Below are positions 4,413-37,587 of a stretch of DNA of 37,587 bases, one piece after another (the first letter of the stretch is position 1; each line of letters begins with the position of its first letter). The DNA is taken from positions 1 to 37,587 of IMG/VR virus record IMGVR_UViG_3300048591_000798, one strand, 5' to 3'. The translations under genes were made by a program, and so were the position numbers. Source of the stretch: a virus. The notes below the pieces were generated by a model. That model saw only the letters and a list, made by a program, of their open reading frames with translations, made no database searches and had not been told where the DNA came from.

Positions 4413-4466
4413 AAAGCCGAGCACAGAATAGTACCCGATCACTAAACTGAGCTCGGCTTTTGCTTT
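4413..4466. terminator. Hairpin (10-bp stem AAAGCCGAGC/GCTCGGCTTT, 28-nt loop) at the convergence of early (+) and late (-) transcription
   Basis: Stem read directly; followed by TTTTGCTTT on the + strand and T-rich on the - strand; lies between gene ends. Confidence 0.5.
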
Positions 4467-4692
4467 ACTTGGTGAGACCCTTCAGAGCGGAAAATACCAC
4501 TGAAGCAGGGCCAAGTTTCACCATAGCCAAGATCTCGATCACCGCGCCACCTATAAGAACCAAAAGCTCCTTTTTTTCTTCCAGATCCAGTTCTGAAAGC
4601 TCTTTGCCAACAAGGTCATAGTCAACAGACATGAGCCCTAGAATGTCAGATTTGATCATACCTATGAGTTTTTTTGTTTCAGTGATGCCCAT
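4465..4692 (-). CDS. Small protein with C-terminal hydrophobic segment (lysis/membrane candidate)
   Basis: 75-aa ORF, RBS GGGAGAG; last gene of the late operon. Confidence 0.5.
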   Translation of the reverse strand: MGITETKKLIGMIKSDILGLMSVDYDLVGKELSELDLEEKKELLVLIGGAVIEILAMVKLGPASVVFSALKGLTK

Positions 4693-4728
4693 ACCGATCT
4701 CTCCCTTTGAAACCTATAAATTGTGTGT

Positions 4729-4959
4729 TTACTGAATTTTATCACAATTCCGGCATTCTTGAGCAAAATGCTGTTCAAAAAGAGCTGTTTGCACGGCTAA
4801 GATTTTATCAAGTCGAGTGATGGAGTCAGAGAGTGTATTGATACGGCTATTGAGGGTTGTAATGGAACGATTAAACCACGCCCCCAAGGTGAACAAAGTT
4901 GTGGCCGCGCTGGCTGCCCCTGAAAAGATGATTTTTAGTAACTCAGCATCGATCTGCAT
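4729..4959 (-). CDS. Small protein with N-terminal TM helix plus coiled coil (holin/spanin-like candidate)
   Basis: 76-aa ORF, RBS GGGG; IIFSGAASAATTLFTLGAWF hydrophobic stretch. Confidence 0.5.
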   Translation of the reverse strand: MQIDAELLKIIFSGAASAATTLFTLGAWFNRSITTLNSRINTLSDSITRLDKILAVQTALFEQHFAQECRNCDKIQ

Positions 4960-5244: not shown

Positions 5245-5562
5245 CTAAAACTCGCAAAAAAGTGTGTACCTAAGCCACCTACCCATGCGACAAGACCACT
5301 CAAAAGCTTCCTTGCGAACACAGGTATGTCTTGGCTCACCTGCGAATTCCAAAATAAAGCTGTTTTCTGTCTTGAATTCATAGTTTCCTACGTTGTCCGA
5401 TGGAGTCGGGTTATGCCCAAGATATGACGCTATCCCGATATCTCCCGTTTTACCGACTGGACCCTCAAATTTTGTTGAGCTGTCCCATTGGAAATTCTCA
5501 CAGTAAGTTGCCGCATTTAAATTCGATGCCAATAGTAGCCCAAAAAGCAATATTTTTCTCAT
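5245..5562 (-). CDS. Secreted protein with N-terminal signal peptide
   Basis: MRKILLFGLLLASNLNAA signal-like N-terminus; RBS GAGGAA 5 nt upstream of the ATG. Confidence 0.5.
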   Translation of the reverse strand: MRKILLFGLLLASNLNAATYCENFQWDSSTKFEGPVGKTGDIGIASYLGHNPTPSDNVGNYEFKTENSFILEFAGEPRHTCVRKEAFEWSCRMGRWLRYTLFCEF

Positions 5563-25314: not shown

Positions 25315-27393
25315 CTACATCAATCCTTGAAGCTGCCTGTATCCTTCTTGCGCATTCTCATCAGCACCGTCAGGAAGTCCGGGAAGCCCTGGCATGTTGG
25401 GCTGGTTAACCTCTTGCGCTTGCTGCTGCATTGGAGGAGCCGCGTTAGCCATCGCTGCCATGTTCGGTGGCGGGGGCTGAACCTGCTGACCGGGGCCTTG
25501 GTTTGGCATCGGGGGCTGCATCGGGTTTGGAAGCGGACCCTCTCCCATCCATGCGAGCATCCCAGGGGAAGAGTTCTGGAGCTCCATAGCCATGTTGAAA
25601 TGCTCCATCATGTGCTGCTGAACAATTGACTGAAGCTGAACATCAAGACGGGCATCGGGGTTAGCGAGGATTGCTCTGTGTTCCAGCCAGTGTGTTTTGT
25701 GATCATCGGATGCAAGCATGATCGGCATTTTGTATGATCTCATGTCTTCGTTTTCGGCTTTGATGAGGATGATCTCGCTCATCTCTGACTCATAGAGTGG
25801 CTCAAGGGTGCCAGTCGTCACAACAGAGAGGTACTCTCTGGGGTTTCGAATCATGTTCGCTGAAAGAAGATCCTGCGCAATTTGCATCTTGCCGGGGGAC
25901 GTCTTGCTGAGAGACGAAGTGGTCTCAAGGATAACCCGGTCAACGTTCGACAAATCTTTGCCCGTGAATGTGCGCATGATTGGCCTATTGAACTTGCCAG
26001 CTATCACCGCTTGCTTCTCATAGTCAACAAAGTCCTGCAGGATATGGATAAGGCCCGTTCCAACCGACTCTTGAATCTGGTTGTAGCTGTTCTGCAGATC
26101 CGAGCTGAAAGTGAGAGCTTGGGATGCCACGAATGCAAGAGAGGACCCAGACTTCAAAGTGGTAGGAACCTCGCCCCGGTTCACCGAAGAGACTCCACTA
26201 ATGGTCTCCATGATCTTCTCTAGCCGTTCGATAAACGCAAAAATTTCTTTTGGGGTGTTGAGCATCTCCAAGACTTCGGGTTTGACGACAGACTCAAGAA
26301 GGTTGAGGCCCCCGGCGATCTGAAGCTTGGTGAGCTGGTTACCGGGTGGCTGCCAGAAGTTTTGCACACCGGAAGCAAATTGGTTCGAGGTGACAATCGA
26401 ATAGAGCTTGTCAATTACTTGCTGGATGCCAAGAAGATCGAAAGCCACCGTGTAGCCGAAGGGAGCACCGACAAGGTCACTTGCCGATATCCTGTAGATT
26501 GGGATCTCTTTGAATGCCAATGGTCCATCAAACAGCACTGTGCCGTCCTGTAGAAACACTGTGTAGCGACCGTTAGGAAGAGAGTCCGTTCGTTTGTGAA
26601 TGAAGTTATAGACATCAATGAGCTCCGTGTGCGAAGTGCCGACCCCTGCAGCGGGAATTATCTTGGTCGGATCGACGTACCTACGTCCGCTTGTAATGTC
26701 TGTCGAAATGTTGAGGATCTGTTCAGAAGCGTGAGGGTACTTTGCAGCGAGGTCAAAGCGATTGAAACAGTCGTGTGTAATGTACCAGTCAACATCAGTG
26801 TTGGGGTGCGTCACGTCACGGATAACATCAAAGGGGTGATAGTTGCGGCAAGTAACGTCTCCTTCGTACTCAAGACCGCTTTCGCCTACCCCGTACTCCT
26901 TGCCCTTTCTCTCATCCCAGTCAATTCTTATGAAACCCTCGCCAAAGATTAAAGCGAGCTCTACAGCATTGCGAAGGTATCTTTCGATCCTCTTTTCTCT
27001 CATGTAATAGTCTACAAGACCGTCGCCGAGGTAGGCTTGTGAGAGGGACTCACTGTCTGAGTTGATCGCCCTGCACTTAAGCTGTGGGCGCTGCTGAGTC
27101 GTGAGCACAAGAAGGTGGGTTATGAGGTTTCTCAGGTGGTTGACCTTTATCGATGCCATCTCACCTTCAACACCTGACTGTCTTATTCTTCCGATTGCAA
27201 ATATACCAAAACCGGATAGTGCTGTGTCTTCAATGAGCCCGTAATAACTGTAGAAAGCCCTTCTCCACAGGTCCGCGAGCGCCGAGCTTGTAAGATAAGC
27301 GTAATAGTCCGATACTTTCCCCGCCAAGCGTTCGCCGATCTCTTCAATTGGAGCACTCGCAAAGTGTGTTTTAGAGTCACGGTATTCCTTCAT
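25315..27393 (-). CDS. Portal protein (692 aa) with Pro/Gln/Met-rich C-terminal tail
   Basis: Size and position directly after the large terminase. Confidence 0.7.
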   Translation of the reverse strand: MKEYRDSKTHFASAPIEEIGERLAGKVSDYYAYLTSSALADLWRRAFYSYYGLIEDTALSGFGIFAIGRIRQSGVEGEMASIKVNHLRNLITHLLVLTTQQRPQLKCRAINSDSESLSQAYLGDGLVDYYMREKRIERYLRNAVELALIFGEGFIRIDWDERKGKEYGVGESGLEYEGDVTCRNYHPFDVIRDVTHPNTDVDWYITHDCFNRFDLAAKYPHASEQILNISTDITSGRRYVDPTKIIPAAGVGTSHTELIDVYNFIHKRTDSLPNGRYTVFLQDGTVLFDGPLAFKEIPIYRISASDLVGAPFGYTVAFDLLGIQQVIDKLYSIVTSNQFASGVQNFWQPPGNQLTKLQIAGGLNLLESVVKPEVLEMLNTPKEIFAFIERLEKIMETISGVSSVNRGEVPTTLKSGSSLAFVASQALTFSSDLQNSYNQIQESVGTGLIHILQDFVDYEKQAVIAGKFNRPIMRTFTGKDLSNVDRVILETTSSLSKTSPGKMQIAQDLLSANMIRNPREYLSVVTTGTLEPLYESEMSEIILIKAENEDMRSYKMPIMLASDDHKTHWLEHRAILANPDARLDVQLQSIVQQHMMEHFNMAMELQNSSPGMLAWMGEGPLPNPMQPPMPNQGPGQQVQPPPPNMAAMANAAPPMQQQAQEVNQPNMPGLPGLPDGADENAQEGYRQLQGLM

Positions 27394-27399
27394 TTTATT

Positions 27400-28842
27400 T
27401 CATCCTTGAAATAGCGAGCGAAGCACTGCTGCGCTCTTTGTTTGAGGTACATTGGTTGTATCGATGTAGTGAGTATGGGGCTGCGCATCTCCCAAGATGG
27501 GGTATGGGTTTTTGCGCACAGCGTGACGATAGCCGTAAACCAAGGCCATGAACGCGTCCATGTGTCCAAGGCTTTGGGTACGGGCAAGATCAGTTTTGTT
27601 CTCGTTGAAAGTTCCAGATCTCAAAGTTCTAATGAGAAGATCACAACGCGGATGGATCTCTATCTCGTTTCTGCACAAAGCAACTCGAATGAGGTTGACC
27701 GAAGTTTCAAGCTCTTCTTTGAGAGGGAGGGCGACGGGATACTTGTGCTGAAGCATGAAGTCAACCCTCATTTGCCCATCTGAGTCAACCCATCTTCCGT
27801 GAAAGTGAAACCGTGTCCTAGAGGCAGAATCACTTTTTGGGTGTATATATTCCCCCTCCATATTCCTCGCCTCGTCAACCATTTTTCCAGACCCTGTCTC
27901 AGGTTCGAAGTGTCTCTCATCCAACACAAGAACTTTCGCTCTAACGAAGTCAAACGCCATAAGAAGGAATACAGATTTATCACGTACTCCCCCCATATCA
28001 CCGCCGACCCATATATTTGCGTATTCTGGGAGTTCAAACTCTTTAACGTGTCTCTTTTCTTCAAATTCAGGTGCAAGTATAATTGTTGCATCTCTAATCT
28101 GTTCACAAAGGTACTCCCTTTTAAAGTCCGGTGACTCCATTCCTCCGCAAAGTTTCACAATCGCATTGAACTGGGCCTCAGTGATCTTCTTGTTGTCGTA
28201 GATTGTGAACTTGAAGAAAGCATTTTCAGCCTGGGCCTCTGGAACGGTTATTGTGCAAAATGGGTGATCTGGGATCTTGGGAAGCGTGGTCATGTAAATT
28301 ATCTGAGCATGTTTGCTGTGGGTCAGGGCTGGAGCAAGGTCAGAGCGGAGAAACTCTAGGTACATGTCTGGATCTGACTCAAGAATCTCTTCGATGTAAA
28401 CCTTATAAAGAGTCTTACCACGGTGGTCAGAGGAGTTGGTATCAAACCCTCCTAGTTTGAGTTCACTTCCATTGTGAAAATACCAAGTATCCTCTGACTT
28501 AACGTGCCTAATCATACCTTGCGGCATGTCTCGACATATAAGTTTCATCCTCGGCCTAACAATCGCTCTGGCTTGCTTGATTGTAGGGCCTATGATCATA
28601 ACGACAATATCTTCGTTTCTGAGGCAGTCTTCAGTAGCCAGAAGACAGCCCAGAACCGACTTGCCGTACTGTCTTGCGCACAAACACACCACGGTTTGAA
28701 TGCTGGTAGGCATTTTTCTGATGCGTTCGTAAATGTTTATCTGCTGCTGCCAAAGCTTGTATGAAAGATCACCGTGCTGCCACAACACCTGTGCCGCTTG
28801 TCGCTGCGAGATTTGAACTGCAGCTTTACTCAACTTGATCAC
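27400..28842 (-). CDS. terL: Terminase large subunit
   Basis: 480 aa; Walker-A-like CARQYGKS; Asp-containing WVGGDMGG in the C-terminal nuclease half; GTG start overlaps the upstream gene. Confidence 0.8.
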   Translation of the reverse strand: MIKLSKAAVQISQRQAAQVLWQHGDLSYKLWQQQINIYERIRKMPTSIQTVVCLCARQYGKSVLGCLLATEDCLRNEDIVVMIIGPTIKQARAIVRPRMKLICRDMPQGMIRHVKSEDTWYFHNGSELKLGGFDTNSSDHRGKTLYKVYIEEILESDPDMYLEFLRSDLAPALTHSKHAQIIYMTTLPKIPDHPFCTITVPEAQAENAFFKFTIYDNKKITEAQFNAIVKLCGGMESPDFKREYLCEQIRDATIILAPEFEEKRHVKEFELPEYANIWVGGDMGGVRDKSVFLLMAFDFVRAKVLVLDERHFEPETGSGKMVDEARNMEGEYIHPKSDSASRTRFHFHGRWVDSDGQMRVDFMLQHKYPVALPLKEELETSVNLIRVALCRNEIEIHPRCDLLIRTLRSGTFNENKTDLARTQSLGHMDAFMALVYGYRHAVRKNPYPILGDAQPHTHYIDTTNVPQTKSAAVLRSLFQG

Positions 28843-29661: not shown

Positions 29662-30097
29662 TTTCGACCCTTTCATGTTCCTTGAATGACTGTTCAAGAT
29701 CATCCAGTTCGGGATCTGCTTTGTCCTCTTCCTTGGGCTGCTTTTCTTTGTCCTTTTCGGCCTGAACCTTGGCGAAAAATTCCATGGTGTCTACGGCCTG
29801 GGAAACTAGGCTTGCGTGGGTAGCTGGAAACAGCCCTTCCATAAGCAAAGCGCCGATGCCCATGAAGACCTGAGTTGAGCCCTCTGGGTACTCGTCCAGG
29901 GTCGCGTATTCGTCCAGGTGGGCAATAGCACTTTTGATCAGTTTAGCATGGGTGCCGGGGTATGTGCCTTGCATGAGTAGCTGAGCTATGCTTTTGAGTA
30001 GGTCATAAGCCTTGATCGGCTGTGGCTCTTTTTTGACAATTTTGACTTTATAATCGTTGGGTTTTTTGTGCCTCGCACGTGCCTTTTTTGCTTGCAA
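29642..30097 (-). CDS. Hypothetical protein with internal tandem duplication; first gene of the late operon, TTG start
   Basis: GGAGG 7 nt upstream of TTG; LLMQGTYPGTHAKLIKSAIAHL and LLMEGLFPATHASLVSQAVDTM repeat. Confidence 0.55.
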   Translation of the reverse strand: MQAKKARARHKKPNDYKVKIVKKEPQPIKAYDLLKSIAQLLMQGTYPGTHAKLIKSAIAHLDEYATLDEYPEGSTQVFMGIGALLMEGLFPATHASLVSQAVDTMEFFAKVQAEKDKEKQPKEEDKADPELDDLEQSFKEHERVENEQDGV

Positions 30098-30154
30098 AAT
30101 ATGACCTCCATGTCATGGGCTCGTATTCGGTTTTTTGCATGTATGCCTCGACCA

Positions 30155-30184
30155 TTTATAACACGCTAAAATTGTTACTGCCAA
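30155..30184 (-). promoter_or_regulatory. Sigma70-like promoter TTGGCA-N18-TATAAA for the leftward late operon
   Basis: Read on the - strand in the divergent intergenic region. Confidence 0.4.
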
Positions 30185-30203
30185 ATTAAATAGCACTCGA
30201 CTG

Positions 30204-30232
30204 TTGACAAGCCTCACTAGAGCTGCTAGTAA
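30204..30232 (+). promoter_or_regulatory. Sigma70-like promoter TTGACA-N17-TAGTAA(T) for the rightward early block; spacer contains palindrome ACTAG-N5-CTAGT
   Basis: Exact -35, 17-nt spacer; 55 nt upstream of the 30288 ATG. Confidence 0.5.
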
Positions 30233-30287
30233 TGGTTTCAGTGAGACGCTACAGGGCGCAAAAAAACAACCCGAACGGAGATAAAAA

Positions 30288-30710
30288 ATGAGCACAATTT
30301 TAAACCTTAAAAACCTTGTAAACGAAAGTGTTAGAGCATACGGACTTTTCAGAATGTGCTTAGATATTTCTGACAAATCAAATTTGGAAATTTATAGGGC
30401 TATTGACAGAGATAGATTCGATAACGCAACAAAGTATGTAACAAAGCTAACTATTGCTTATATTCACGAGGGAATGGAACCTGAAATTGTTCACATTTTC
30501 GATCAAGAAAACCCTACACTGTCTGACCTTGAAACATATCTAAAAGAAAAGCTTACAGATGATCTTATGAAAGAGGTTGGCGTCGAGGTTTCTGTGGTCG
30601 GTAATATTGATCAAACAAGAATAGGTAAAAACACAGTTGAAGGTCTATTAAACTATCCTCATTTCATGACTGAAAATGAAAGAGAACGACAGTTTTTAAC
30701 ATCTTATTGA
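30288..30710 (+). CDS. Hypothetical early protein (140 aa, acidic)
   Basis: RBS GGAG; first gene after the early promoter. Confidence 0.6.
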   Translation: MSTILNLKNLVNESVRAYGLFRMCLDISDKSNLEIYRAIDRDRFDNATKYVTKLTIAYIHEGMEPEIVHIFDQENPTLSDLETYLKEKLTDDLMKEVGVEVSVVGNIDQTRIGKNTVEGLLNYPHFMTENERERQFLTSY

Positions 30711-30721
30711 GAGAGGAAAAA

Positions 30722-30976
30722 ATGCCCCAAATAACGACTAAAAAAGGACGAGTTTTCACATGGGTTTCCTACGTCGGAAAACCAGTTGTGATCGAGTCCC
30801 AAAACCGCAACAGAAGAACATGCTTCAAGAACGTTTTTAGCTGCTGTGACGGCAAGAATTATGTGTTCTATCAAGGGTTCTCATATGAGCATATCGGATC
30901 TTGCCCTATGAGCGGAAAAATGATGTTTAAGAAGTCAGAAAACCAATACGAATTTGACGATAAAAAGGTGGGATAA
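30722..30976 (+). CDS. Hypothetical protein (84 aa)
   Basis: ATG preceded by GAGAGGAAAAA. Confidence 0.55.
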   Translation: MPQITTKKGRVFTWVSYVGKPVVIESQNRNRRTCFKNVFSCCDGKNYVFYQGFSYEHIGSCPMSGKMMFKKSENQYEFDDKKVG

Positions 30977-30979
30977 TAC

Positions 30980-31168
30980 ATGTACAAAATAAAGCTTTAT
31001 GAGCGCAATGTTTACGGCAAAATTATGATGTATTTTAGAGAACAAAACGAGGCTGAAATATTCAAGATCTTGACAGGACAAAAGACTATCAGCATGAAGC
31101 AAGTTAAGGCCATGGAATGCTTCGGCGTGACGTTTGAAATTGAGAAGCTGCCGGAGAATGTAAAGTGA
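30980..31168 (+). CDS. Hypothetical protein (62 aa)
   Basis: ORF in the packed early operon. Confidence 0.5.
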   Translation: MYKIKLYERNVYGKIMMYFREQNEAEIFKILTGQKTISMKQVKAMECFGVTFEIEKLPENVK

Positions 31169-31476
31169 CATCGGTAAAGCTTACAGATGAAGAGCAGTTC
31201 ATTCTTGAATGCATAGCTGAGGATATTCATCAAGAAGATAGGAGAATTACTCCAAATGAATACATTTTCGCATGCAGAATAGATGGGATATTCGGCGATA
31301 TAGATGCAGATAATATTTTAGTTTCTTTAGTTGAAAAAGGGTTCATAACATCTCGTTTCAATGATTATTATGCTTGTATAGAAGTTGCCATTACAGAGAA
31401 AGGGTTTTCACACCTTGAAATAAATTACCAAAAAGAAGAGCCCTATCAGATTGGTGAAGATGATGAGTTAGAATAG
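31165..31476 (+). CDS. Very acidic small protein (103 aa), winged-helix-like
   Basis: GTG start overlapping the upstream TGA (GTGA), GGAG RBS; many Asp/Glu. Confidence 0.5.
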   Translation: MTSVKLTDEEQFILECIAEDIHQEDRRITPNEYIFACRIDGIFGDIDADNILVSLVEKGFITSRFNDYYACIEVAITEKGFSHLEINYQKEEPYQIGEDDELE

Positions 31477-31496
31477 CAATGAGAAGGAGTAAACGA

Positions 31497-31691
31497 ATGA
31501 AAGCCCGGCTTGAGTTTGAGATGCCTAAATGTTGCTTCAACTGCCCTTGTTGTTGGGAAGGTGCTCTATGCTGCAAAGCTGTGAAAGAAGACTATAGAAA
31601 AGACAGTTTAGGCTTTAAGCCGTTTGAATATAAATTTGACATATGGGAAGGAAAGCCCGACTGGTGCCCGCTGCAGGAGGTTGAGAAGTGA
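31497..31691 (+). CDS. Cys-rich small protein (CCFNCPCC...CC...WCPL)
   Basis: The ATG at 31497 lies 7 nt after AAGGAG. Confidence 0.55.
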   Translation: MKARLEFEMPKCCFNCPCCWEGALCCKAVKEDYRKDSLGFKPFEYKFDIWEGKPDWCPLQEVEK

Positions 31692-31990
31692 AGTATTCAA
31701 TGCTGGACAAAGACAAGAATGTAATCGAGATATGCAGAGAGTGTTATCTTAAAAATCATGAAAAAATTTGGTCCGAAAGGATATTAGCATGCGATTCAAT
31801 TGATGATCAATGCTTTGTAAGCACCATAGTCCTTCCTTTTAATCATGGCATTCATGAAGACCCACTGTTCTTCGAAACAATGATATTCAATGGCCCTCAT
31901 GACGGGTTTATGGATCGCTATGCAACATACGATGAAGCCGTTGCAGGACACGCTAAAGCTGTAGCTATGGCCAAGGGCGAACAAATTTGA
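31688..31990 (+). CDS. Hypothetical phage protein (VSTIVLP...FETMIF...RY.TY.EA..GH pattern)
   Basis: GTG start with GGAGG RBS; pattern recalled from common phage proteins of unknown function. Confidence 0.55.
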   Translation: MKYSMLDKDKNVIEICRECYLKNHEKIWSERILACDSIDDQCFVSTIVLPFNHGIHEDPLFFETMIFNGPHDGFMDRYATYDEAVAGHAKAVAMAKGEQI

Positions 31991-32029
31991 TTATAATATC
32001 CTCATTACCAACAAATTTTGGGGGTGTAA

Positions 32030-32224
32030 ATGAGGTTTACCGAGCTCAATATTGTCCTTCGTGCTACTAAGCTTTGCGATCTTCTGAAACAATTGAATAT
32101 TGATCTTAAACATGATAGAGCACTTGACATAATTTCTCGTCTTGAGGGGTACAAAGATTACGCCGAAATGTACGAGGTTTTGAAGGAGGAAAACAAGGGG
32201 TGGGAGAGGAGAAGACGGTTTTGA
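32030..32224 (+). CDS. Hypothetical protein (64 aa)
   Basis: RBS GGGGTG. Confidence 0.5.
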   Translation: MRFTELNIVLRATKLCDLLKQLNIDLKHDRALDIISRLEGYKDYAEMYEVLKEENKGWERRRRF

Positions 32225-32538
32225 TAAGTGAGAAGGTTGATAAATGCGCCCAGCACCTCATAAGCTGGTACGGTTTTAAGAACCAACTTCAAAAAGCTGC
32301 AGAAGAGTCGAAAGAATATGAATCAGCTTTGGATGATCTTATTGTACTTCCACTGATCGACTGTGTTGTTTGTGAGAAAAAATGTGATGAATTTCGCGAA
32401 GCTGTTGAGAGCTTAATTGATGAAACTGCAGACGCGATCTTTACAGCCTACCAAGTCGCAAAAATGATAGGACTTGAAAAGGTCATAGAAAGAATAGAAT
32501 ACAAAGCTAATCGTGCTGTTGAGCGAATAAACGCTTAA
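32200..32538 (+). CDS. MazG-like all-alpha nucleotide pyrophosphohydrolase candidate
   Basis: KAAEESKEYESAL ... IDETADAIFTAYQVAKMIG resembles the EExxE / E-x-aD motif pair of the MazG family. Confidence 0.35.
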   Translation: MGEEKTVLISEKVDKCAQHLISWYGFKNQLQKAAEESKEYESALDDLIVLPLIDCVVCEKKCDEFREAVESLIDETADAIFTAYQVAKMIGLEKVIERIEYKANRAVERINA

Positions 32539-32558
32539 TATATTTTGAAAGGACTAAG

Positions 32559-32792
32559 ATGATTGCAAGAACCGTTAATAATCCGATTGAATTAGTTGAT
32601 GCATGTATTCAGATGTTAATGTTTCATAAAATGAATATGATTCAGACATATAATGAAAATACAGGTAAGCAAAAGAAGAGTAAAGAACCCGCAAAAAAAA
32701 AGCAACGAAGAAAAAATAAGAAGACAACGGTAAGTGCTGCGAAAAAAAGAGGAAGACCGGGCAGGAAACCAGGACCAAAACCAGCGATTTAA
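32559..32792 (+). CDS. Basic protein with AT-hook (KKRGRPGRKPGPKP)
   Basis: RGRP core in a Lys/Arg-rich C-terminus; RBS AAAGGA. Confidence 0.55.
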   Translation: MIARTVNNPIELVDACIQMLMFHKMNMIQTYNENTGKQKKSKEPAKKKQRRKNKKTTVSAAKKRGRPGRKPGPKPAI

Positions 32793-32793
32793 T

Positions 32794-33102
32794 TTAGTTT
32801 TTGAGATACCCCTTTTCAGCCAAGATCTTGACCAAATCTCTTTTTTTATAGCTGACATCACAAAGCCAACGGCCAAAGCTATCTTGCTTATGAGGGGTAA
32901 GCTCAACTCTGTTACCTCCGATCAGAGAGGAAACATACTCTTTCGCTTCTATTCCTTGCTCTTTATCACAACCGTGCACTTCCCATGCATCACACCCAAA
33001 AACGCGAACAGTGACGTGAATAGACACGTTGAAGCCAAGTTCTACCTGGGCCTCAAAAGTATCCCCGTCGATCACCCTGGTGACTTTTGAATCATGGTGC
33101 AT
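32794..33102 (-). CDS. Staphylococcal-nuclease (SNase/thermonuclease) fold nuclease
   Basis: VIDGDTFE, RVFGCDAWE (compare R-x-x-G-I-D-A-P-E) and FGRWLCDV (compare YGR-x-L) motifs. Confidence 0.7.
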   Translation of the reverse strand: MHHDSKVTRVIDGDTFEAQVELGFNVSIHVTVRVFGCDAWEVHGCDKEQGIEAKEYVSSLIGGNRVELTPHKQDSFGRWLCDVSYKKRDLVKILAEKGYLKN

Positions 33103-33904
33103 ACCAACATTTCGGCCTATTACTACAAGTTTTTGCTTTTTTATCTAATGGGATAATCTTATCATCCCATGGTTTGTCACACAAGATACCAGCGATCATC
33201 GTATCAAGTCTGCACTGCGGGGTAGGATGCCCCTGGAATGTCTTTTTCACATCATTCTGCTCGGGAGTCGTTGGGTCTGTTTCTTTTATCCATGGGCGGT
33301 ACACAACTGCCAAGAAATCTGATAAACTTTTAGCCCCCATCAAAGTCAACATGCACACGTCTTTATCGTATTTTTCATCGAAATATTTTTCGCACAGATC
33401 GGACTCTATTCTGAGTTGATTGATCAGTTTTCTTTTTTTTATGGTTTTACCAAAAATCTTTCTGGCACAAACATGGGCTGCGTAGTAGTCGGCTTGCCCC
33501 TCTGTCGAGCTCTTGAGATAGTCCTTTATCGGGTAGCCCCCAAGCAGATGCCCGATCTCATGACAAAGAGCCATTGTAAAGCCCTCCTTTGTGATCTGTA
33601 CTTTCCTCGCCAAACCGCCGTGTACCTCGATCTTCCAGTTTCGCGCATACTGACTGTCAAACTGATAGACATACATATTGGAGTCTTTACTATCCCATTT
33701 GCGCTCAAACCAGAAGTTTACCCCAATGGCTTTGAAGATCGGCTGATAGGTATCATTGACGGATTGGATCAAGTCGTGAAACTGCTTTTCTGTGATATTT
33801 GAGAGTCCCGGATTATCGTCTGGAACATCGTTCGGCGGCATGTCTGCAAATATCATTGTGGAGACGAGAAAAGCGATGAGCAAAGTGACCATTTTTTGAC
33901 CCAT
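33092..33904 (-). CDS. Secreted Cys-rich zinc metalloprotease (HEIGH)
   Basis: N-terminal signal-like VTLLIAFLVSTMIFA; HExxH with Asp 9 residues after the second His; at least 8 Cys. Confidence 0.65.
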   Translation of the reverse strand: MGQKMVTLLIAFLVSTMIFADMPPNDVPDDNPGLSNITEKQFHDLIQSVNDTYQPIFKAIGVNFWFERKWDSKDSNMYVYQFDSQYARNWKIEVHGGLARKVQITKEGFTMALCHEIGHLLGGYPIKDYLKSSTEGQADYYAAHVCARKIFGKTIKKRKLINQLRIESDLCEKYFDEKYDKDVCMLTLMGAKSLSDFLAVVYRPWIKETDPTTPEQNDVKKTFQGHPTPQCRLDTMIAGILCDKPWDDKIIPLDKKAKTCSNRPKCWYAP

Positions 33905-33937
33905 AAAAAAACCCCCGATAAGCTGTATCAGGGGTTT
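33905..33937 (-). terminator. Intrinsic terminator between the cysteine protease and metalloprotease genes
   Basis: - strand: CCCC-T-GATA-CAGCT-TATC-G-GGGG followed by TTTTTTT, directly abutting the ATG at 33904. Confidence 0.55.
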
Positions 33938-33984
33938 AGTGTAGCATGGAGTAATGCCTTAGTGAAATTCGACTTGCTGCATAC

Positions 33985-35181
33985 CTATTGGAGTTCTTTA
34001 CCAAGCTTACCATGAGCCTTAATTGCTGGCAATACATTGACCGTTGTTCCATGAAAAGCGGTGCCACATTTTGTAGTAGCAAACACGGTCAGCCTCTTGG
34101 TGATTCTTGGCACATAATTGATCTGTGCCGTGAGTGGCTTACCGTTGTTATCAAAAGAGGGATCTGCGACCCAAGTATAAGTGTGTCCGGGACGCGCCTT
34201 TGTACCCATCACAATCCTCTGTCCTGCCCTTACACTGATGACATCGGGATACCCGGTGTAGGCAAAAGGCTGTGGCTGGCATCCTGGATCTGGCTTTGGA
34301 TCTGGGCCTGGAGGCGGTGGAGGGGGTGGGTTTGGCTCAGAGTCTTCGGCCACAACGTAGTTCGCCCAAGCGCCGATGCCATTAGCTTTAAACGAGATAT
34401 GGCCCCAGCCATTGATTCCCCAGCCAGTACCCCAGCTATTGCGCATGATCCAATATCCATCGCCGTTATTGTCATTCCAGCCTACTATGTTTACTGCATG
34501 ATTGAGATCCCTGAAACCTGTGTCTCTGAAGATGCCACCACGATAATTTTGTAGGGCGTCATCTACAGCTATACCAACTCCCAATGGACCGTAGGTCATC
34601 AAGGCTCGTTTCAGCCCATCAACATCATTTCCAGCATTGTCGCCACCAGGCAGATAAGCCCAGTTTTTGATCGCCCATTTGTAGCTTAATCCCGATTTAC
34701 ACTGGGAATCAGTTCCGGTATAAGGGTAATCGATCTCTAAAATTGATCCCTTCGGTTTCATCATGTAGTTGTACGCGAAGAACCCTCCGTTGCAACCCCA
34801 GCCTTCATTGTTACACGAAACCAAATACTGCTCTGAAAGATCTTCTTTCCCACCCTTAAAAATTCTTCGCACATCTTCAAAAGTAGCAACCGAGCTGTAA
34901 CTCCAACAAGAGCCGCACCCGCCTTGGTTGCGAATTGGCATCAATTCGGCCTTTGTTCTCCAATCGAAGGCTGATGGAAGGGTTTCCCCAACACGAAGCT
35001 TTGGGGCCTCTTTTACGTTCGTAGGTTTGAAGTTTGGGGGGATCTTAAGACCTGTTGCGTAGGGTCCAGCACCGCCACCCGATAAGACTGGATCTGCGTT
35101 AACAACGACACTGTTTGACGCCTCGTGCGAGCAAGCTGCGAAAGCCGCTATGAGCGCAAGGGGCAAAAAGAACTTCTTCAT
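33985..35181 (-). CDS. Lipoprotein papain-family (C1) cysteine protease with Pro-rich linker and ~100-aa C-terminal domain
   Basis: MKKFFLPLALIAAFAAC lipobox-like signal. Catalytic set NQGGCGSCWSYS (Gln, Cys), LNHAVNIVGW (His), NSWG (Asn). The ATG overlaps the amidase stop as ATGA, with GGAGGA RBS. Confidence 0.8.
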   Translation of the reverse strand: MKKFFLPLALIAAFAACSHEASNSVVVNADPVLSGGGAGPYATGLKIPPNFKPTNVKEAPKLRVGETLPSAFDWRTKAELMPIRNQGGCGSCWSYSSVATFEDVRRIFKGGKEDLSEQYLVSCNNEGWGCNGGFFAYNYMMKPKGSILEIDYPYTGTDSQCKSGLSYKWAIKNWAYLPGGDNAGNDVDGLKRALMTYGPLGVGIAVDDALQNYRGGIFRDTGFRDLNHAVNIVGWNDNNGDGYWIMRNSWGTGWGINGWGHISFKANGIGAWANYVVAEDSEPNPPPPPPPGPDPKPDPGCQPQPFAYTGYPDVISVRAGQRIVMGTKARPGHTYTWVADPSFDNNGKPLTAQINYVPRITKRLTVFATTKCGTAFHGTTVNVLPAIKAHGKLGKELQ

Positions 35182-35648
35182 CGATATTCCTCCGTATTGT
35201 ATTTCTCTTTGGCAGCATACCATAACTGGGTGTTTTCATCATACTTCCACATTTTGATTAAATCGAAATTAGGGCAAGTTTTGTAAATATTGTAGTAGTT
35301 ATGCGGCAAGACGTTCTTGCCGAGGATACGGTACCTGTCCATGAAGCGTTTCACGACGCCCCAGAGGGCCACAAATTGCTCTTCCGTGAACTTTTTATTG
35401 CCCGAGACACATATGCCTATGGAGTTTTTATTATGGCCCTGACAGTGAGCGCCAACCTTGTCCAGTGGGCGACCGTTGAACACCCTGCCGCGCTTGTCGA
35501 TAAAGATGTGATAGCCAATGTCCGACCAGCCTTTATCAAGATGCATTTTCCTGATCGCTTCGACGTTATCCAGATCTGGATTATCTGTTGCGCTGCAGTG
35601 GATAATAATCTCTTTTATGTCCGAAAGTTCACGGTTTGCTACCACCAT
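35178..35648 (-). CDS. N-acetylmuramoyl-L-alanine amidase, T7-lysozyme type (endolysin)
   Basis: IIIHCSAT...GWSDIGYHIFI...GAHCQGHNKNSIGICVSGN...CPNFD closely parallels T7 gp3.5. Confidence 0.85.
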   Translation of the reverse strand: MVVANRELSDIKEIIIHCSATDNPDLDNVEAIRKMHLDKGWSDIGYHIFIDKRGRVFNGRPLDKVGAHCQGHNKNSIGICVSGNKKFTEEQFVALWGVVKRFMDRYRILGKNVLPHNYYNIYKTCPNFDLIKMWKYDENTQLWYAAKEKYNTEEYR

Positions 35649-35719
35649 TCAAATCGATCTCCCAGAGGTCACAAATCTGCGCTTTTTCGCGCTCACAAAA
35701 CATGAAATATTTGCACTTG

Positions 35720-35959
35720 TCACAGCTTTTGAAGTTCTGCAATTTCAAACTCTCCCATAACTTCTTCAAGTGGATCAAAAGCCTCTGCTGCGACTGCTTT
35801 TGCGTAGCATTTTACGCGCTTTTTTGAGTCCTTAATCTCTCGATTATAACCCGCAACAAGTTCCTTTTTTTCCTCTGTTTGTTTCTCGATATGATTTGTG
35901 ATTTGGACGATCTTTTTACTCAAAAATTCGATCTGTTTTTGATTCATTTTTCTCACCAT
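35720..35959 (-). CDS. Coiled-coil small protein (79 aa), first gene of the hydrolase island
   Basis: ORF with alternative ATG five codons in; no TM segment. Confidence 0.5.
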   Translation of the reverse strand: MVRKMNQKQIEFLSKKIVQITNHIEKQTEEKKELVAGYNREIKDSKKRVKCYAKAVAAEAFDPLEEVMGEFEIAELQKL

Positions 35960-35983
35960 GGTTAGCTATTTTTTTATATGATG

Positions 35984-36012
35984 AGAGTAGCGAGTTTTTG
36001 GTAGGGGTGCAA
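35984..36012 (-). promoter_or_regulatory. Promoter candidate TTGCAC-N17-TACTCT for the hydrolase island
   Basis: Read on the - strand; a TATAAA box also lies at 35973..35978. Confidence 0.3.
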
Positions 36013-36017
36013 TGCTT

Positions 36018-36055
36018 AAAAAAATAGCAGTTCAACATGATGACTTGAACTGCTA
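36018..36055 (-). terminator. Strong leftward intrinsic terminator (11-bp stem, 9-nt loop, T7)
   Basis: TAGCAGTTCAA/TTGAACTGCTA arms; - strand followed by TTTTTTT. Confidence 0.6.
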
Positions 36056-36202
36056 ATCAACCCAAACAGACGCCACGAATTCAAAAGAATTTTTGACAGT
36101 TGTTTTTGGCACCATAACACAACAAATTTTTATTGACTAGAGGTGCATATTGAGAGTACCAAGAAGCGGTAGTAATTTTCTCTTTCCTCTGAAAATAAAA
36201 AA

Positions 36203-36233
36203 GCACCGCTCTCAATTTGCGATGCCTTTTTTT
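36203..36233. terminator. Hairpin flanked by an A-run and T7 in the rep leader (attenuator or bidirectional terminator)
   Basis: GCACCGC/GCGATGC (one mismatch), 9-nt loop, then C-TTTTTTT; preceded by AAAATAAAAAA. Confidence 0.4.
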
Positions 36234-36373
36234 AGCCCAGTTGCCTCGACAAAGTGACTTGGGCCAGTCGTTAGAGTGATTTTTTGTAACTAACCATGTC
36301 TACACCCCCAGCACGACGCTTGAAACATAGCTTTTCGTGCTGGCGATTGCAAGGCCATTTTAAAGGGAAAGCT

Positions 36374-37240
36374 ATGTCTATTGTTAAAACTACAAATTCT
36401 ACCCATGAAAAAAAATCAGTAAAAAAATCAGATATCTTCGACCCTTTCGCTGGTGGTAGGTTTTTGATGGCTATTGCTGAAAATCAAAACCTAACTGCCG
36501 ATGAGACGCTGATTTTATTGATTATAGGGTCTCATCAAGACTTCAATGATTTCTTGCACTCAAAACGGTACATGACCATTGAGAGAATCGCTTTTTTAGC
36601 TAAACGCACAGAAAGATGGATCAAGAAATGTCTAAGGTCATTAGAGCAAAAAGGCTACTTGATCACTGAAGAGTGTTTTAGAAAAAGCGGTAAGCAGTTA
36701 GCTAACAACTATTCGTTATCAGACATAATTTTTACAGACGCGCACCAAAATTGGCTGTCGAGTAGGGGTGAATACAGTTCACCCCACAAAGTGACGGAGG
36801 GTGAATACAGTTCACCCCCAGGGGTGAATACAGTTCACCCCCAGATCCCTAATAAAGAGGTCCCTAATATTAAAAAAGGTAAATCTAAAGATTTACCTAA
36901 AAAGGGAATTACTCAGAATAAAAAGTGGGAATTAAGGCAATGCCAGGACATGGGGATCGATGTTTTTACTCCCGACGCCGATCAGCAGGGAAGAATTCCT
37001 AACCCTGGGAGGAGAGCTATCGAGCTTCATATGTCTGAGATGCACCAAAGATACGGCTACCAAGCCGTAAAGCTCTTTATTGATGATCTCAAGGATCAAG
37101 GTCTAAGGGGTAAAGCTCTTTTCAACAGGGGCAAGATTGATAATGCTGTGAAAGCCGCTTTTGAGTTTCTGCAGCAAAAAAACTCTGAGGCAATATCTGA
37201 GTCCTCTCAAAGAATTCAAGACCAACCAATACCATTTTAA
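36374..37240 (+). CDS. Replication initiator (winged-helix N-terminal domain, lambda O-like organisation)
   Basis: The ATG at 36374 follows AAAGGGAAA. The N-terminal half shows an HTH pattern (TIERIAFLAKRTERWIKKCLRSLEQKGYLI). Iterons and an AT-rich tract lie in the linker. Confidence 0.65.
   Translation: MSIVKTTNSTHEKKSVKKSDIFDPFAGGRFLMAIAENQNLTADETLILLIIGSHQDFNDFLHSKRYMTIERIAFLAKRTERWIKKCLRSLEQKGYLITEECFRKSGKQLANNYSLSDIIFTDAHQNWLSSRGEYSSPHKVTEGEYSSPPGVNTVHPQIPNKEVPNIKKGKSKDLPKKGITQNKKWELRQCQDMGIDVFTPDADQQGRIPNPGRRAIELHMSEMHQRYGYQAVKLFIDDLKDQGLRGKALFNRGKIDNAVKAAFEFLQQKNSEAISESSQRIQDQPIPF
36765..36842. repeat. Three iterons GGGGTGAATACAGTTCACCCC, each an inverted repeat GGTGAA-N5-TTCACC
   Basis: Copies at 36765..36785, 36799..36819 and 36821..36842, read directly. 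Confidence 0.85.
36765..36935. other. Putative origin of replication (iterons plus adjacent AT-rich tract with TCCCTAATA x2)
   Basis: Iterons are followed by an AT-rich ~90 nt; TCCCTAATA at 36846 and 36861; the layout parallels lambda ori inside gene O. Confidence 0.55.
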
Positions 37241-37295
37241 CGATTTTAAAGAACAATGCCTAAAAGTCATAGTAACCGCATATCATGGAGTATTT

Positions 37296-37587
37296 ATGCG
37301 TCAATTAAGTCAACTTGAGTACAATTTAGCTTTATCGATTGTTACAAAATTTTATCGTGACATTGAGTTATTTACAAATTTAGAAGCAGCAATTGGCATG
37401 AGCTGGGAGGAGTCTAGGTTTTGGGAAGCTAACCTAGATTTGGTATCAGAACTGCTCTTATTCCTTGGAATTGATAAAGAAAAGTTCGTCACTACATTGT
37501 TGATCGGATATAACCATGATAACGGTAAACGATCTCATGGAAAGGCTAAAGACTTTCTTGACGATCTTCTAAGTCGTTTAAATATCA
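37296..37587 (+). CDS. Hypothetical protein (102 aa when the circle is closed; continues at 128..144)
   Basis: ATG 6 nt after GGAG; open to the window end; completed by nt 128..144. Confidence 0.55.
   Translation, partial: MRQLSQLEYNLALSIVTKFYRDIELFTNLEAAIGMSWEESRFWEANLDLVSELLLFLGIDKEKFVTTLLIGYNHDNGKRSHGKAKDFLDDLLSRLNI
37461..37587. repeat. Terminal direct repeat copy 2 (identical to 1..127)
   Basis: Read directly; lies inside the ORF that starts at 37296. Confidence 0.95.

Follow-up and report, generated by a model that had tools for sequence, protein, structure and literature searches.

The IMG/VR virus record IMGVR_UViG_3300048591_000798, whose positions 1 to 37,587 (37,587 nucleotides) form the window analysed here, encodes an endolysin-type amidase and, directly after it, an exported protease of the papain family (Peptidase_C1, hereafter C1) at positions 33,985 to 35,648. 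We found that genes for such proteases adjoin four non-homologous types of wall hydrolase in different lineages, and that our scan of the window gave no spanin candidate. We tentatively favour the reading that the protease is an accessory lysis or egress enzyme acting at the envelope. Coordinates within the window are collected in Table 1, and related loci are referred to by L numbers.

The papain-family protease and its export signal

A search of 5.8 billion proteins returned 668 homologues of the protease, many of which are about 400 amino acids long, match the query over its full length and are encoded on phage-sized contigs. The protease matches Pfam family PF00112 (Peptidase_C1) over residues 68–267 (E 1.5e-51, 176 bits, cut-off 20.7). 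In an alignment of 28 homologues (A1), Gln86, Cys92, His228, Asn248 and Trp250 are invariant and align to the residues of ficin. They include the full papain catalytic set that an earlier note on this DNA, made from the sequence alone, had recognised in the motifs NQGGCGSCW (Gln86, Cys92), LNHAVNIVGW (His228) and NSWG (Asn248). Cys89, Cys123, Cys130 and Cys161 are likewise invariant among the 28 homologues. By comparison with the disulfide cysteines of papain, we take these four to be candidate disulfide formers, which would fit an oxidising compartment.

An AlphaFold2 (AF2) model made with the 28-sequence alignment had a predicted local distance difference test score (pLDDT) of 84.6, with values mostly above 90 in the catalytic domain. 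In Foldseek searches, this core matched procerain B, ervatamin and cathepsins K and S (E ~1e-19 to 1e-20), with a template modelling (TM) score of about 0.9 normalised to the target and a root-mean-square deviation of about 2 Å. The mature domain is 33–37% identical to C1A peptidases, and 35–37% identical to ficin and procerain. By profile, catalytic set and predicted fold, the protease is thus a member of the C1A family, and apparently an active endopeptidase. It resembles cathepsins L, K and S, ficin and procerain in its catalytic Gln, Cys, His and Asn, its papain fold and its conserved disulfide cysteines. Unlike these enzymes, it is encoded by a phage, it combines the catalytic domain with a lipoprotein signal, a Pro-rich linker and a domain similar to Ig_7, and it has no globular I29 prodomain: I29 gave no match, and the lipobox Cys is separated from the mature domain by just 50 residues.

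Those 50 residues include a conserved segment (residues 39–67) that is modelled with a pLDDT of about 91–92 and contains an invariant glycine, G44. In both HMMER and Foldseek, the alignments of residues ~42–67 run into the final ~25 residues of the propeptides of procathepsin K and propapain, and Foldseek aligns ~30 more columns with zymogens than with mature enzymes. This suggests that residues 39–67 are a truncated prosegment between the lipid anchor and the enzyme. The protease may therefore wait as a tethered zymogen, and the cut that activates it may also free the enzyme from its lipid anchor.

The N-terminus (MKK-FFLPLALIAAF-AAC) passes a rule-based lipobox scan, which looks for an n-region, an h-region and a lipobox in the first ~35 residues. 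With hardly an exception, complete members of the close clade of this protease have a Cys-Ser pair at the end of the hydrophobic region, and the lipoprotein-type signal that had been read in LALIAAFAAC is thus conserved. Under the E. coli rule, Ser at +2 directs a lipoprotein to the outer membrane. Every complete homologue of the protease bears an export signal of some kind.

Behind the catalytic domain, the Pro-rich linker PPPPPPPGPDPKPDPG and the beta-rich C-terminal domain of about 100 residues that the earlier note had described are both present. The linker has a pLDDT below 50 at residues 285–296, and its Pro-X repeat varies in length among homologues. The C-terminal domain is modelled as a block of six predicted beta-strands with a pLDDT of 85–94 over residues 301–380. 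It had no direct Pfam match at E <= 0.1. A phmmer search with residues 296–398 showed that giant proteins contain up to ~30 tandem copies of the same unit. Five of these repeat proteins were checked, and the repeats of four belong to Pfam Ig_7 (PF19081, CHU_C associated). The tail is a generic Ig-like module, with no recognisable wall-binding domain.

Two observations concern the C-terminal part of the protein. In the lipoprotein clade, the Ig-like domain is followed by a conserved short tail, K..PE[LV][DEQ] (window 33985-34026, minus strand; A1 columns ~480-497), which could be a partner-binding motif. In L091 (5938-8922), an open reading frame (ORF) of 994 amino acids begins with the C1 domain, linker and Ig-like domain over its first ~400 residues; it is either a fusion or an assembly read-through error.

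Wall hydrolases beside the protease gene and the search for a spanin

The amidase matches Pfam Amidase_2 (PF01510; E 3e-17, 63.6 bits, cut-off 26), the amidase lysis family phrog_822 of PHROGs (E 1.6e-40) and T7 lysozyme (1ARO/1LBA; E 3.4e-20), with which its HCSAT, GYH and H..K.C motifs align. From what is known of T7 lysozyme, we take HCSAT, GYH and H...K-x-C to provide the zinc ligands and the catalytic Tyr and Lys. The protein ends in ...EEYR, followed by TGA, and lacks both a signal peptide and a wall-binding domain. Judged by its sequence, it is a cytoplasmic endolysin of the T7 lysozyme type, which would reach the wall only through a membrane lesion. As the amidase is small and has a single domain, and as it is paired with a lipoprotein, we infer that the host is Gram-negative.

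The likeness to T7 lysozyme (gp3.5) includes its equal size and its location in a DNA-metabolism region. T7 gene 3.5 follows gene 3, and the amidase gene of L001 likewise adjoins a gene for a RuvC-like resolvase. Unlike in T7, the amidase gene is followed by a protease gene, and the polymerase-inhibiting role of T7 lysozyme probably does not apply, because we saw no gene for a phage RNA polymerase among those examined.

The full-length relatives that we compared for nearby wall hydrolases have a C1 domain, a Pro-rich linker and an Ig-like tail. An Amidase_2 gene lies immediately upstream of the C1 gene in the window, in L001, L002, L087, L088, L092, L093 and L094, and in the distant L172, whose protease is of the Sec type. 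In L171, it lies two genes from the C1 gene in convergent orientation. Other loci have a wall hydrolase of another family. In L110, the gene for a GH24 phage lysozyme is the second one downstream of C1, from which it is separated by that of a small transmembrane protein; in L125, an M15 peptidase gene lies three genes upstream of C1, in a block of small membrane-protein genes that follows the tail-fibre genes; and in L006, a 182-kb contig, an SLT transglycosylase gene is directly downstream. Small transmembrane and coiled-coil proteins flank the C1 gene in L096, L115 and L125. As four non-homologous wall hydrolases adjoin the C1 gene in different lineages, the protease family is tied to lysis cassettes, a pattern that is hard to explain by chance or shared ancestry alone.

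The junction of the two genes in the window is as the earlier note had described it: the endolysin-type amidase gene adjoins the protease gene in an ATGA overlap, and GGAGGA lies 7 nt upstream of the protease start. The note had also taken this overlap to imply stoichiometric co-expression, a claim that we do not retain. Start/stop overlaps of four nucleotides are routine in this genome (8538-8541, 22172-22175, 2749-2752, 3116-3119, 31165-31168 and 31688-31691), and in the relatives a gap of 10–96 nt separates the two genes, with a ribosome-binding site of its own for the protease gene. A longer protease ORF that starts at the ATG at 35223 was rejected, since homologues begin at the MKK position, the Shine-Dalgarno sequence serves the start at 35181, and the signal peptide would be buried in the longer product.

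In several relatives, the amidase stop codon is embedded in the motif TGATAYAAT (L001 3390-3400, L002 5986-5996, L088 5048-5058 and L092 5945-5955). This resembles an extended -10 element and may be part of a promoter for the protease gene itself in those relatives. The motif is not enriched in the window, with 16 matches against 15.4 expected, and we dropped it as evidence.

Our lipobox scan for spanin components covered every ATG, GTG and TTG start in every frame and asked for a lipobox after a hydrophobic stretch. The protease was the only credible lipoprotein on a coding strand of the complete genome, in which the scan found no candidate for a two-component or a unimolecular spanin. In particular, there was no lipobox ORF in or beside the gene for a 76-residue transmembrane and coiled-coil protein described below. 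The same scan found no small o-spanin-like lipoprotein near the lysis genes in 13 related loci. Beside the amidase gene, we recognised no ORF for a small cationic amphipathic peptide.

Phages without an identifiable spanin are known: they numbered 91 of 677 in one survey (PMC6139136) and make up ~13–15% of phages of Gram-negative hosts (PMC6139136; bioRxiv 10.1101/515445). For breaching the outer membrane without a spanin, only one alternative, disruptin, has been described (bioRxiv 10.1101/515445). The o-spanins are small and non-enzymatic, are encoded with or inside the i-spanin gene, and act by membrane fusion (PMC6139136).

We rejected the protease itself as an o-spanin, as it is an enzyme of 398 residues with a soluble amidase as its neighbour and with the i-spanin-like gene ~6 kb away. 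It was also rejected as a unimolecular spanin of the T1 gp11 type, as it has no hydrophobic segment after residue 31; its C-terminus is an Ig-like domain with a charged tail and no membrane segment. A disruptin is a small peptide, which excludes the protease from this class as well. The protease does share features with the spanins (lambda Rz/Rz1, T7 gp18.5/18.7 and T1 gp11): it is predicted to be an outer-membrane lipoprotein, pre-positioned in the periplasm, its family occurs in or near lysis cassettes, and it is the sole lipoprotein of a genome that offers nothing else for the outer-membrane step. It differs from them in its size and enzymatic nature, in lacking a C-terminal transmembrane segment and in having soluble relatives. 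Disruptin, gp28 of phage phiKT, is a known non-spanin solution to the outer-membrane problem in a spanin-less podophage (bioRxiv 10.1101/515445); unlike the exported enzyme described here, it is a small cationic membrane-active peptide.

Proposed role of the protease and alternative explanations

If the protease acts at the envelope as we tentatively favour, it would be exported by Sec, lipidated at Cys17, as its lipobox predicts, and sorted through its Ser at +2 to the inner (periplasmic) face of the outer membrane. It would fold in the periplasm, where its disulfides would form, and hang from the membrane on a tether of ~20 residues, with the Pro-rich linker and the Ig-like domain extending from the other end of the enzyme. 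From the periplasmic side, it would digest envelope proteins, its putative substrates, and when the amidase removes the wall the outer layers would fail and virions would be freed. The protease is the best candidate for the outer-membrane step in this spanin-less genome. An exported papain-family protease that is encoded beside four unrelated endolysin types, in the absence of spanin candidates, would represent a testable new class of lysis or egress factors.

Two more specific versions of this role are less probable. It is compatible with the data, yet in our view unlikely, that the protease cuts the tethers between the outer membrane and peptidoglycan in place of a spanin. Equally doubtful is a third, enzymatic solution to the outer-membrane problem beside spanins and disruptin, in which the protease would be an anchored zymogen, restrained by its short prosegment, that a single cut activates and frees once holin and amidase act. 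It would then cleave proteins by which the outer membrane is stabilised or tethered, so that phages without spanins could burst their hosts.

In full-text searches, no papain-family protein turned up as a phage lysis partner, in agreement with the earlier note, and we found nothing on point in the literature for phages of Oligoflexia, the class to which some of the host leads described below point. Fold matches in BFVD include a few proteins of uncultured phages whose papain-like domains are very distant and in some cases fused to wall-binding or muramidase modules. Clan-CA folds therefore have precedent in lysis proteins, whereas the cathepsin-like, lipoprotein, Ig-tailed form has no known precedent. 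An extra cassette factor directed against an envelope layer or tether other than peptidoglycan has parallels in LysB of mycobacteriophages, a mycolylarabinogalactan esterase, and LysZ of corynephages and mycobacteriophages (bioRxiv 10.1101/2025.06.24.661397). These two are an esterase and a membrane protein rather than a cysteine protease; they differ from the protease in host envelope and in fold, and there is no homology between them.

The BFVD matches also bear on whether the protease is a second wall-cutting enzyme, that is, a secreted endolysin partner of the amidase whose papain-fold domain cleaves stem peptides or cross-links. CHAP and NlpC/P60 are distantly related domains that cleave peptidoglycan in this way. 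Among the matches are phage proteins named 'Peptidoglycan binding-like' and 'N-acetylmuramidase (Fragment)', with 16–17% identity to the C1 model, and the C1 gene does adjoin wall hydrolases. However, the protease is a close C1A member, as its identity to ficin and procerain and its Gln/Cys/His/Asn set indicate, and not a CHAP or NlpC/P60 protein. C1A enzymes cut L-peptide bonds in proteins. The tail offers a generic Ig-like module in place of a wall-binding domain. We consider a wall-cutting role highly improbable.

Several observations weigh against a role in lysis at the envelope. A sister clade of the protease (P0065, P0078, P0081, P0090, P0118 and others) has plain Sec signals that end in Ala-x-Ala-type sites. 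As these proteins are soluble, outer-membrane anchoring is not essential across the family. No wall hydrolase lies near the C1 gene in L003/L004, L090, L095, L108, L173 and L174. The loci with the closest terminases, L177 and L179 (~70% identity), lack the cassette in the ~10 kb upstream of the terminase gene. This absence covers the amidase and protease genes as well as the two genes that follow them in the window, for a secreted protein with an HExxH motif and an SNase-type nuclease; it applies to the stretch that was examined. The four genes are therefore accessory rather than core at that position, and they behave as a mobile accessory cassette. An extension of the L177 contig contained tail genes and small ORFs, with no recognisable endolysin or spanin, and a query with the tail protein gave no match in IMG/VR. 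Furthermore, the early or middle location of the protease gene beside replication genes means that active enzyme would already have been exported well ahead of lysis. A small disruptin-like peptide may also be encoded elsewhere in the genome. The lysis partnership that the earlier note proposed thus stands in part: the linkage to four wall-hydrolase families and the lack of a spanin candidate speak for it, and the lipid anchoring on which it drew is not a family-wide trait.

A last point of this kind is that the C1 gene is often accompanied by genes for other exported hydrolases. Two genes from it in L006 (10001-14102) is a lipoprotein of the GH18 chitinase type with an N-terminal region that resembles a carbohydrate-binding module; a GH5 enzyme is encoded in L174 (3275-6224), an 11-kb fragment; L005 (9998-11959) encodes a lipoprotein with a weak, sub-threshold match to Trypsin; and L172 (7940-8836) encodes a weakly GH12-like protein. 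The larger phage contigs that combine C1 with exported hydrolases, of 182 and 230 kb, are jumbo-phage-like. Such companions would be expected if the protease served egress during or after lysis, as part of an exported hydrolase set that liquefies extracellular matrix, sheath, debris or an enclosing structure and lets virions diffuse away; the export signal would then mainly permit disulfide-dependent folding. We regard this as a real possibility, though not a probable one. In most close relatives the C1 gene is followed by the gene for the secreted HExxH protein, the cassette is accessory, a soluble secreted clade exists, and tails similar to Ig_7 are typical of surface or extracellular proteins. 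The L006 locus adds an SLT transglycosylase to its GH18 lipoprotein. However, lipid anchoring across the close clade favours action at the envelope and not at a distance, and an extracellular scavenger needs no adjacent endolysin. The window encodes no glycosidase, and its SNase, without a signal peptide, is probably an intracellular DNA degrader that stands outside the secreted set.

Baculoviruses offer a model for such egress, as their V-CATH is a virus-encoded C1A protease that serves exit together with the chitinase ChiA, the two liquefying the dead host. Viral cathepsins are among the BFVD fold matches of the window protease, and the GH18 gene of L006 lies two genes from C1. Unlike the phage protein, V-CATH has a eukaryotic host and a full propeptide, and it is retained with ChiA in the endoplasmic reticulum. 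No chitinase is encoded in the window, and a GH18 gene near C1 is seen only in L006, a distant relative. If the protease does act on matrix or debris, the baculovirus strategy of a 'cathepsin for exit' would extend to bacteriophages.

The early or middle location of the gene, divergent from the replication gene, would also suit a lipoprotein that destroys receptors or excludes superinfection. An early outer-membrane protease could clip receptors or other surface proteins and spare progeny from binding to debris. The T5 lipoprotein Llp is a precedent for exclusion, which it achieves by binding FhuA. That the protease is the sole lipoprotein of the genome, and that the C1 gene follows tail-fibre genes in L115 and L125, is in keeping with this function. 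Still, repeated linkage to four endolysin families is not expected of an exclusion protein, a protease at the inner leaflet faces the periplasm and not the surface, and members of the soluble clade cannot stay at the cell surface. The protease showed no similarity to known exclusion proteins, and PADLOC gave no relevant match. We consider exclusion quite unlikely.

Finally, the protease and the HExxH protein may have been borrowed from a proteolytic or predatory host lineage as auxiliary genes that bring a gain in nutrients, with no part in lysis. Of the HExxH homologues from named cellular organisms, nearly all belong to Oligoflexales or Pseudobacteriovorax (Bdellovibrionota), where the gene stands alone among housekeeping genes, and the G+C content of the window (45.7%) matches that of the Pseudobacteriovorax locus (45.8%). 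We take these findings as a weak hint of an Oligoflexia host. C1 catalytic domains are also widespread in environmental bacteria: a scan of GTDB with the C1 alignment matched at least 560 stretches, so the earlier note was mistaken in calling papain-family peptidases uncommon in bacteria. Among the best 80 of these matches, however, all contain the catalytic domain only (<=46% identity, scattered phyla) except L008, a full-length match with 36% identity in a cellular context. The architecture of C1 domain, Pro-rich linker and Ig-like tail is essentially confined to phages. Moreover, a long-term benefit to the host is unlikely because no integrase or lysogeny module was seen in the window and the terminase homologues are all on free contigs of ~30–37 kb. 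An auxiliary role, which leaves the linkage to endolysins without explanation, is improbable, and we give it slightly less weight than exclusion.

Neighbouring genes and the phage genome

The natural limits of the feature extend beyond 33985-35648 to a terminator, the secreted HExxH protein and the SNase nuclease (Table 1). The terminator-like hairpin directly follows the protease gene. A stable hairpin occurs at the equivalent place in 10 of the 10 relatives examined, most with a clear T-run, despite sequence divergence (L001, at 4672-4706, L002, L003 and the equivalents in L087-L094). As the hairpin follows the C1 gene in all of them, this gene closes its transcription unit; in the window, that unit consists of the amidase and protease genes, with the terminator at its end. 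The unit and the replication gene are transcribed divergently, which puts the unit in the early or middle region, the location that T7 lysozyme also has. Directly behind the T-run, in the window and most relatives, comes the ATG of the next gene, for which no Shine-Dalgarno sequence is obvious.

Table 1. Features of the window discussed in the text, with their positions and the evidence for each.
Feature	Position	Strand	Evidence
N-acetylmuramoyl-L-alanine amidase, T7 lysozyme type, 156 amino acids	35178..35648	-	Amidase_2, phrog_822 and T7 lysozyme matches
ATGA, amidase stop TGA overlapping protease start ATG (35181..35179)	35178..35181	-	Sequence
GGAGGA, Shine-Dalgarno sequence of protease, 6-nt spacer (7 nt counted A to A)	35188..35193	-	Sequence
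Lipoprotein-type Peptidase_C1 (papain family) protein, 398 amino acids	33985..35181	-	Pfam, AF2, Foldseek
Predicted signal peptide and lipobox MKKFFLPLALIAAFAAC, Cys17 codon 35133..35131, Ser at +2	35131..35181	-	Rule-based lipobox scan
Conserved N-terminal segment YxTGLxxPxxFKP, residues 39-67	34981..35067	-	AF2, alignment
Mature papain-fold catalytic domain, residues 68-283, Cys92 codon 34908..34906	34333..34980	-	Alignment, PDB sequence search, fold search
Pro-rich linker, residues 284-300, predicted disordered	34282..34332	-	AF2, alignment
C-terminal Ig-like beta-sandwich, residues 301-385, invariant Cys301 and Cys372	34027..34281	-	AF2, phmmer
Intrinsic-terminator-like hairpin, 12-bp stem and T-run, directly after protease gene	33909..33937	-	Terminator scan
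Secreted HExxH protein, 270 amino acids, Sec signal, CHEIGHLLGG...EGQADY, 8 conserved Cys	33092..33904	-	Alignment A2, AF2
SNase-type nuclease, 102 amino acids, no signal peptide	32794..33102	-	Pfam SNase (E 1.2e-05), phrog_452 endonuclease (E 1.6e-19)
76-residue protein, N-terminal transmembrane segment and coiled coil, late-operon end	4729..4959	-	Hydrophobicity scan
75-residue protein, hydrophobic C-terminal segment, partner of 76-residue protein	4465..4692	-	Hydrophobicity scan
105-residue Sec-signal protein, third of late-operon-end trio	5245-5562	-	No family match
Large terminase	27400-28842
Portal	25315-27393

The HExxH gene is downstream of the C1 gene in most close relatives, and the SNase gene is syntenic in relatives. 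The HExxH protein has 2712 homologues and was modelled by AF2 with a pLDDT of 84.7 and a predicted TM score of 0.85. It had no match in Pfam or NCBIfam, nor in PDB by sequence or fold, where the best fold match was anthrax lethal factor at E 0.13. It looks like a putative zinc metallopeptidase of an uncharacterised family, and a family of more than 2,700 sequences without annotation or a detectable structural match in PDB is of interest in its own right.

The late operon ends with three small, conserved genes, for the proteins of 105, 76 and 75 residues in Table 1, none of which had a family match. The 76/75 gene pair is kept in L002, L003, L087 and L090. The 76-residue protein is a candidate holin-like or i-spanin-like lysis protein, and the 75-residue protein a candidate lysis-timing protein. 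Together, the trio provides the best holin-like candidates of the genome, ~6 kb from the amidase gene around the circle.

The first 127 nucleotides of the window are identical to the last (1-127 = 37461-37587), leaving ~37,460 bp of unique sequence. Because of this exact terminal overlap, the assembly is complete and circular, and the window is a complete circular phage genome. Besides the terminase and portal, it encodes a RecT-like protein and a DnaD-like replication protein, and no tRNA genes were found in it. Positions 30000-37587 had no DNA match among 50,697 GenBank phage records. The protease had only five weak matches (<30% identity) among GenBank phages, all of them on short human-faecal contigs. 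A lone 145-kb contig with a terminase homologue was considered as a prophage and rejected, as the contig is another phage. The genome is podovirus-like and probably virulent.

Two further observations were made elsewhere in the genome. The last virion or tail protein, of 989 amino acids (5572-8541, minus strand), has the motif HEHVH near its C-terminus (…VPHEHVHAQ…) and no family match; this is possibly a second metallopeptidase-like site. Inside the gene for the DnaD-like replication protein (36740-36850, plus strand), GGTGAATACAGTTCACCCC occurs three times in a tandem-like arrangement that encodes GEYSSP repeats, and these may be iteron-like origin repeats within the replication gene.

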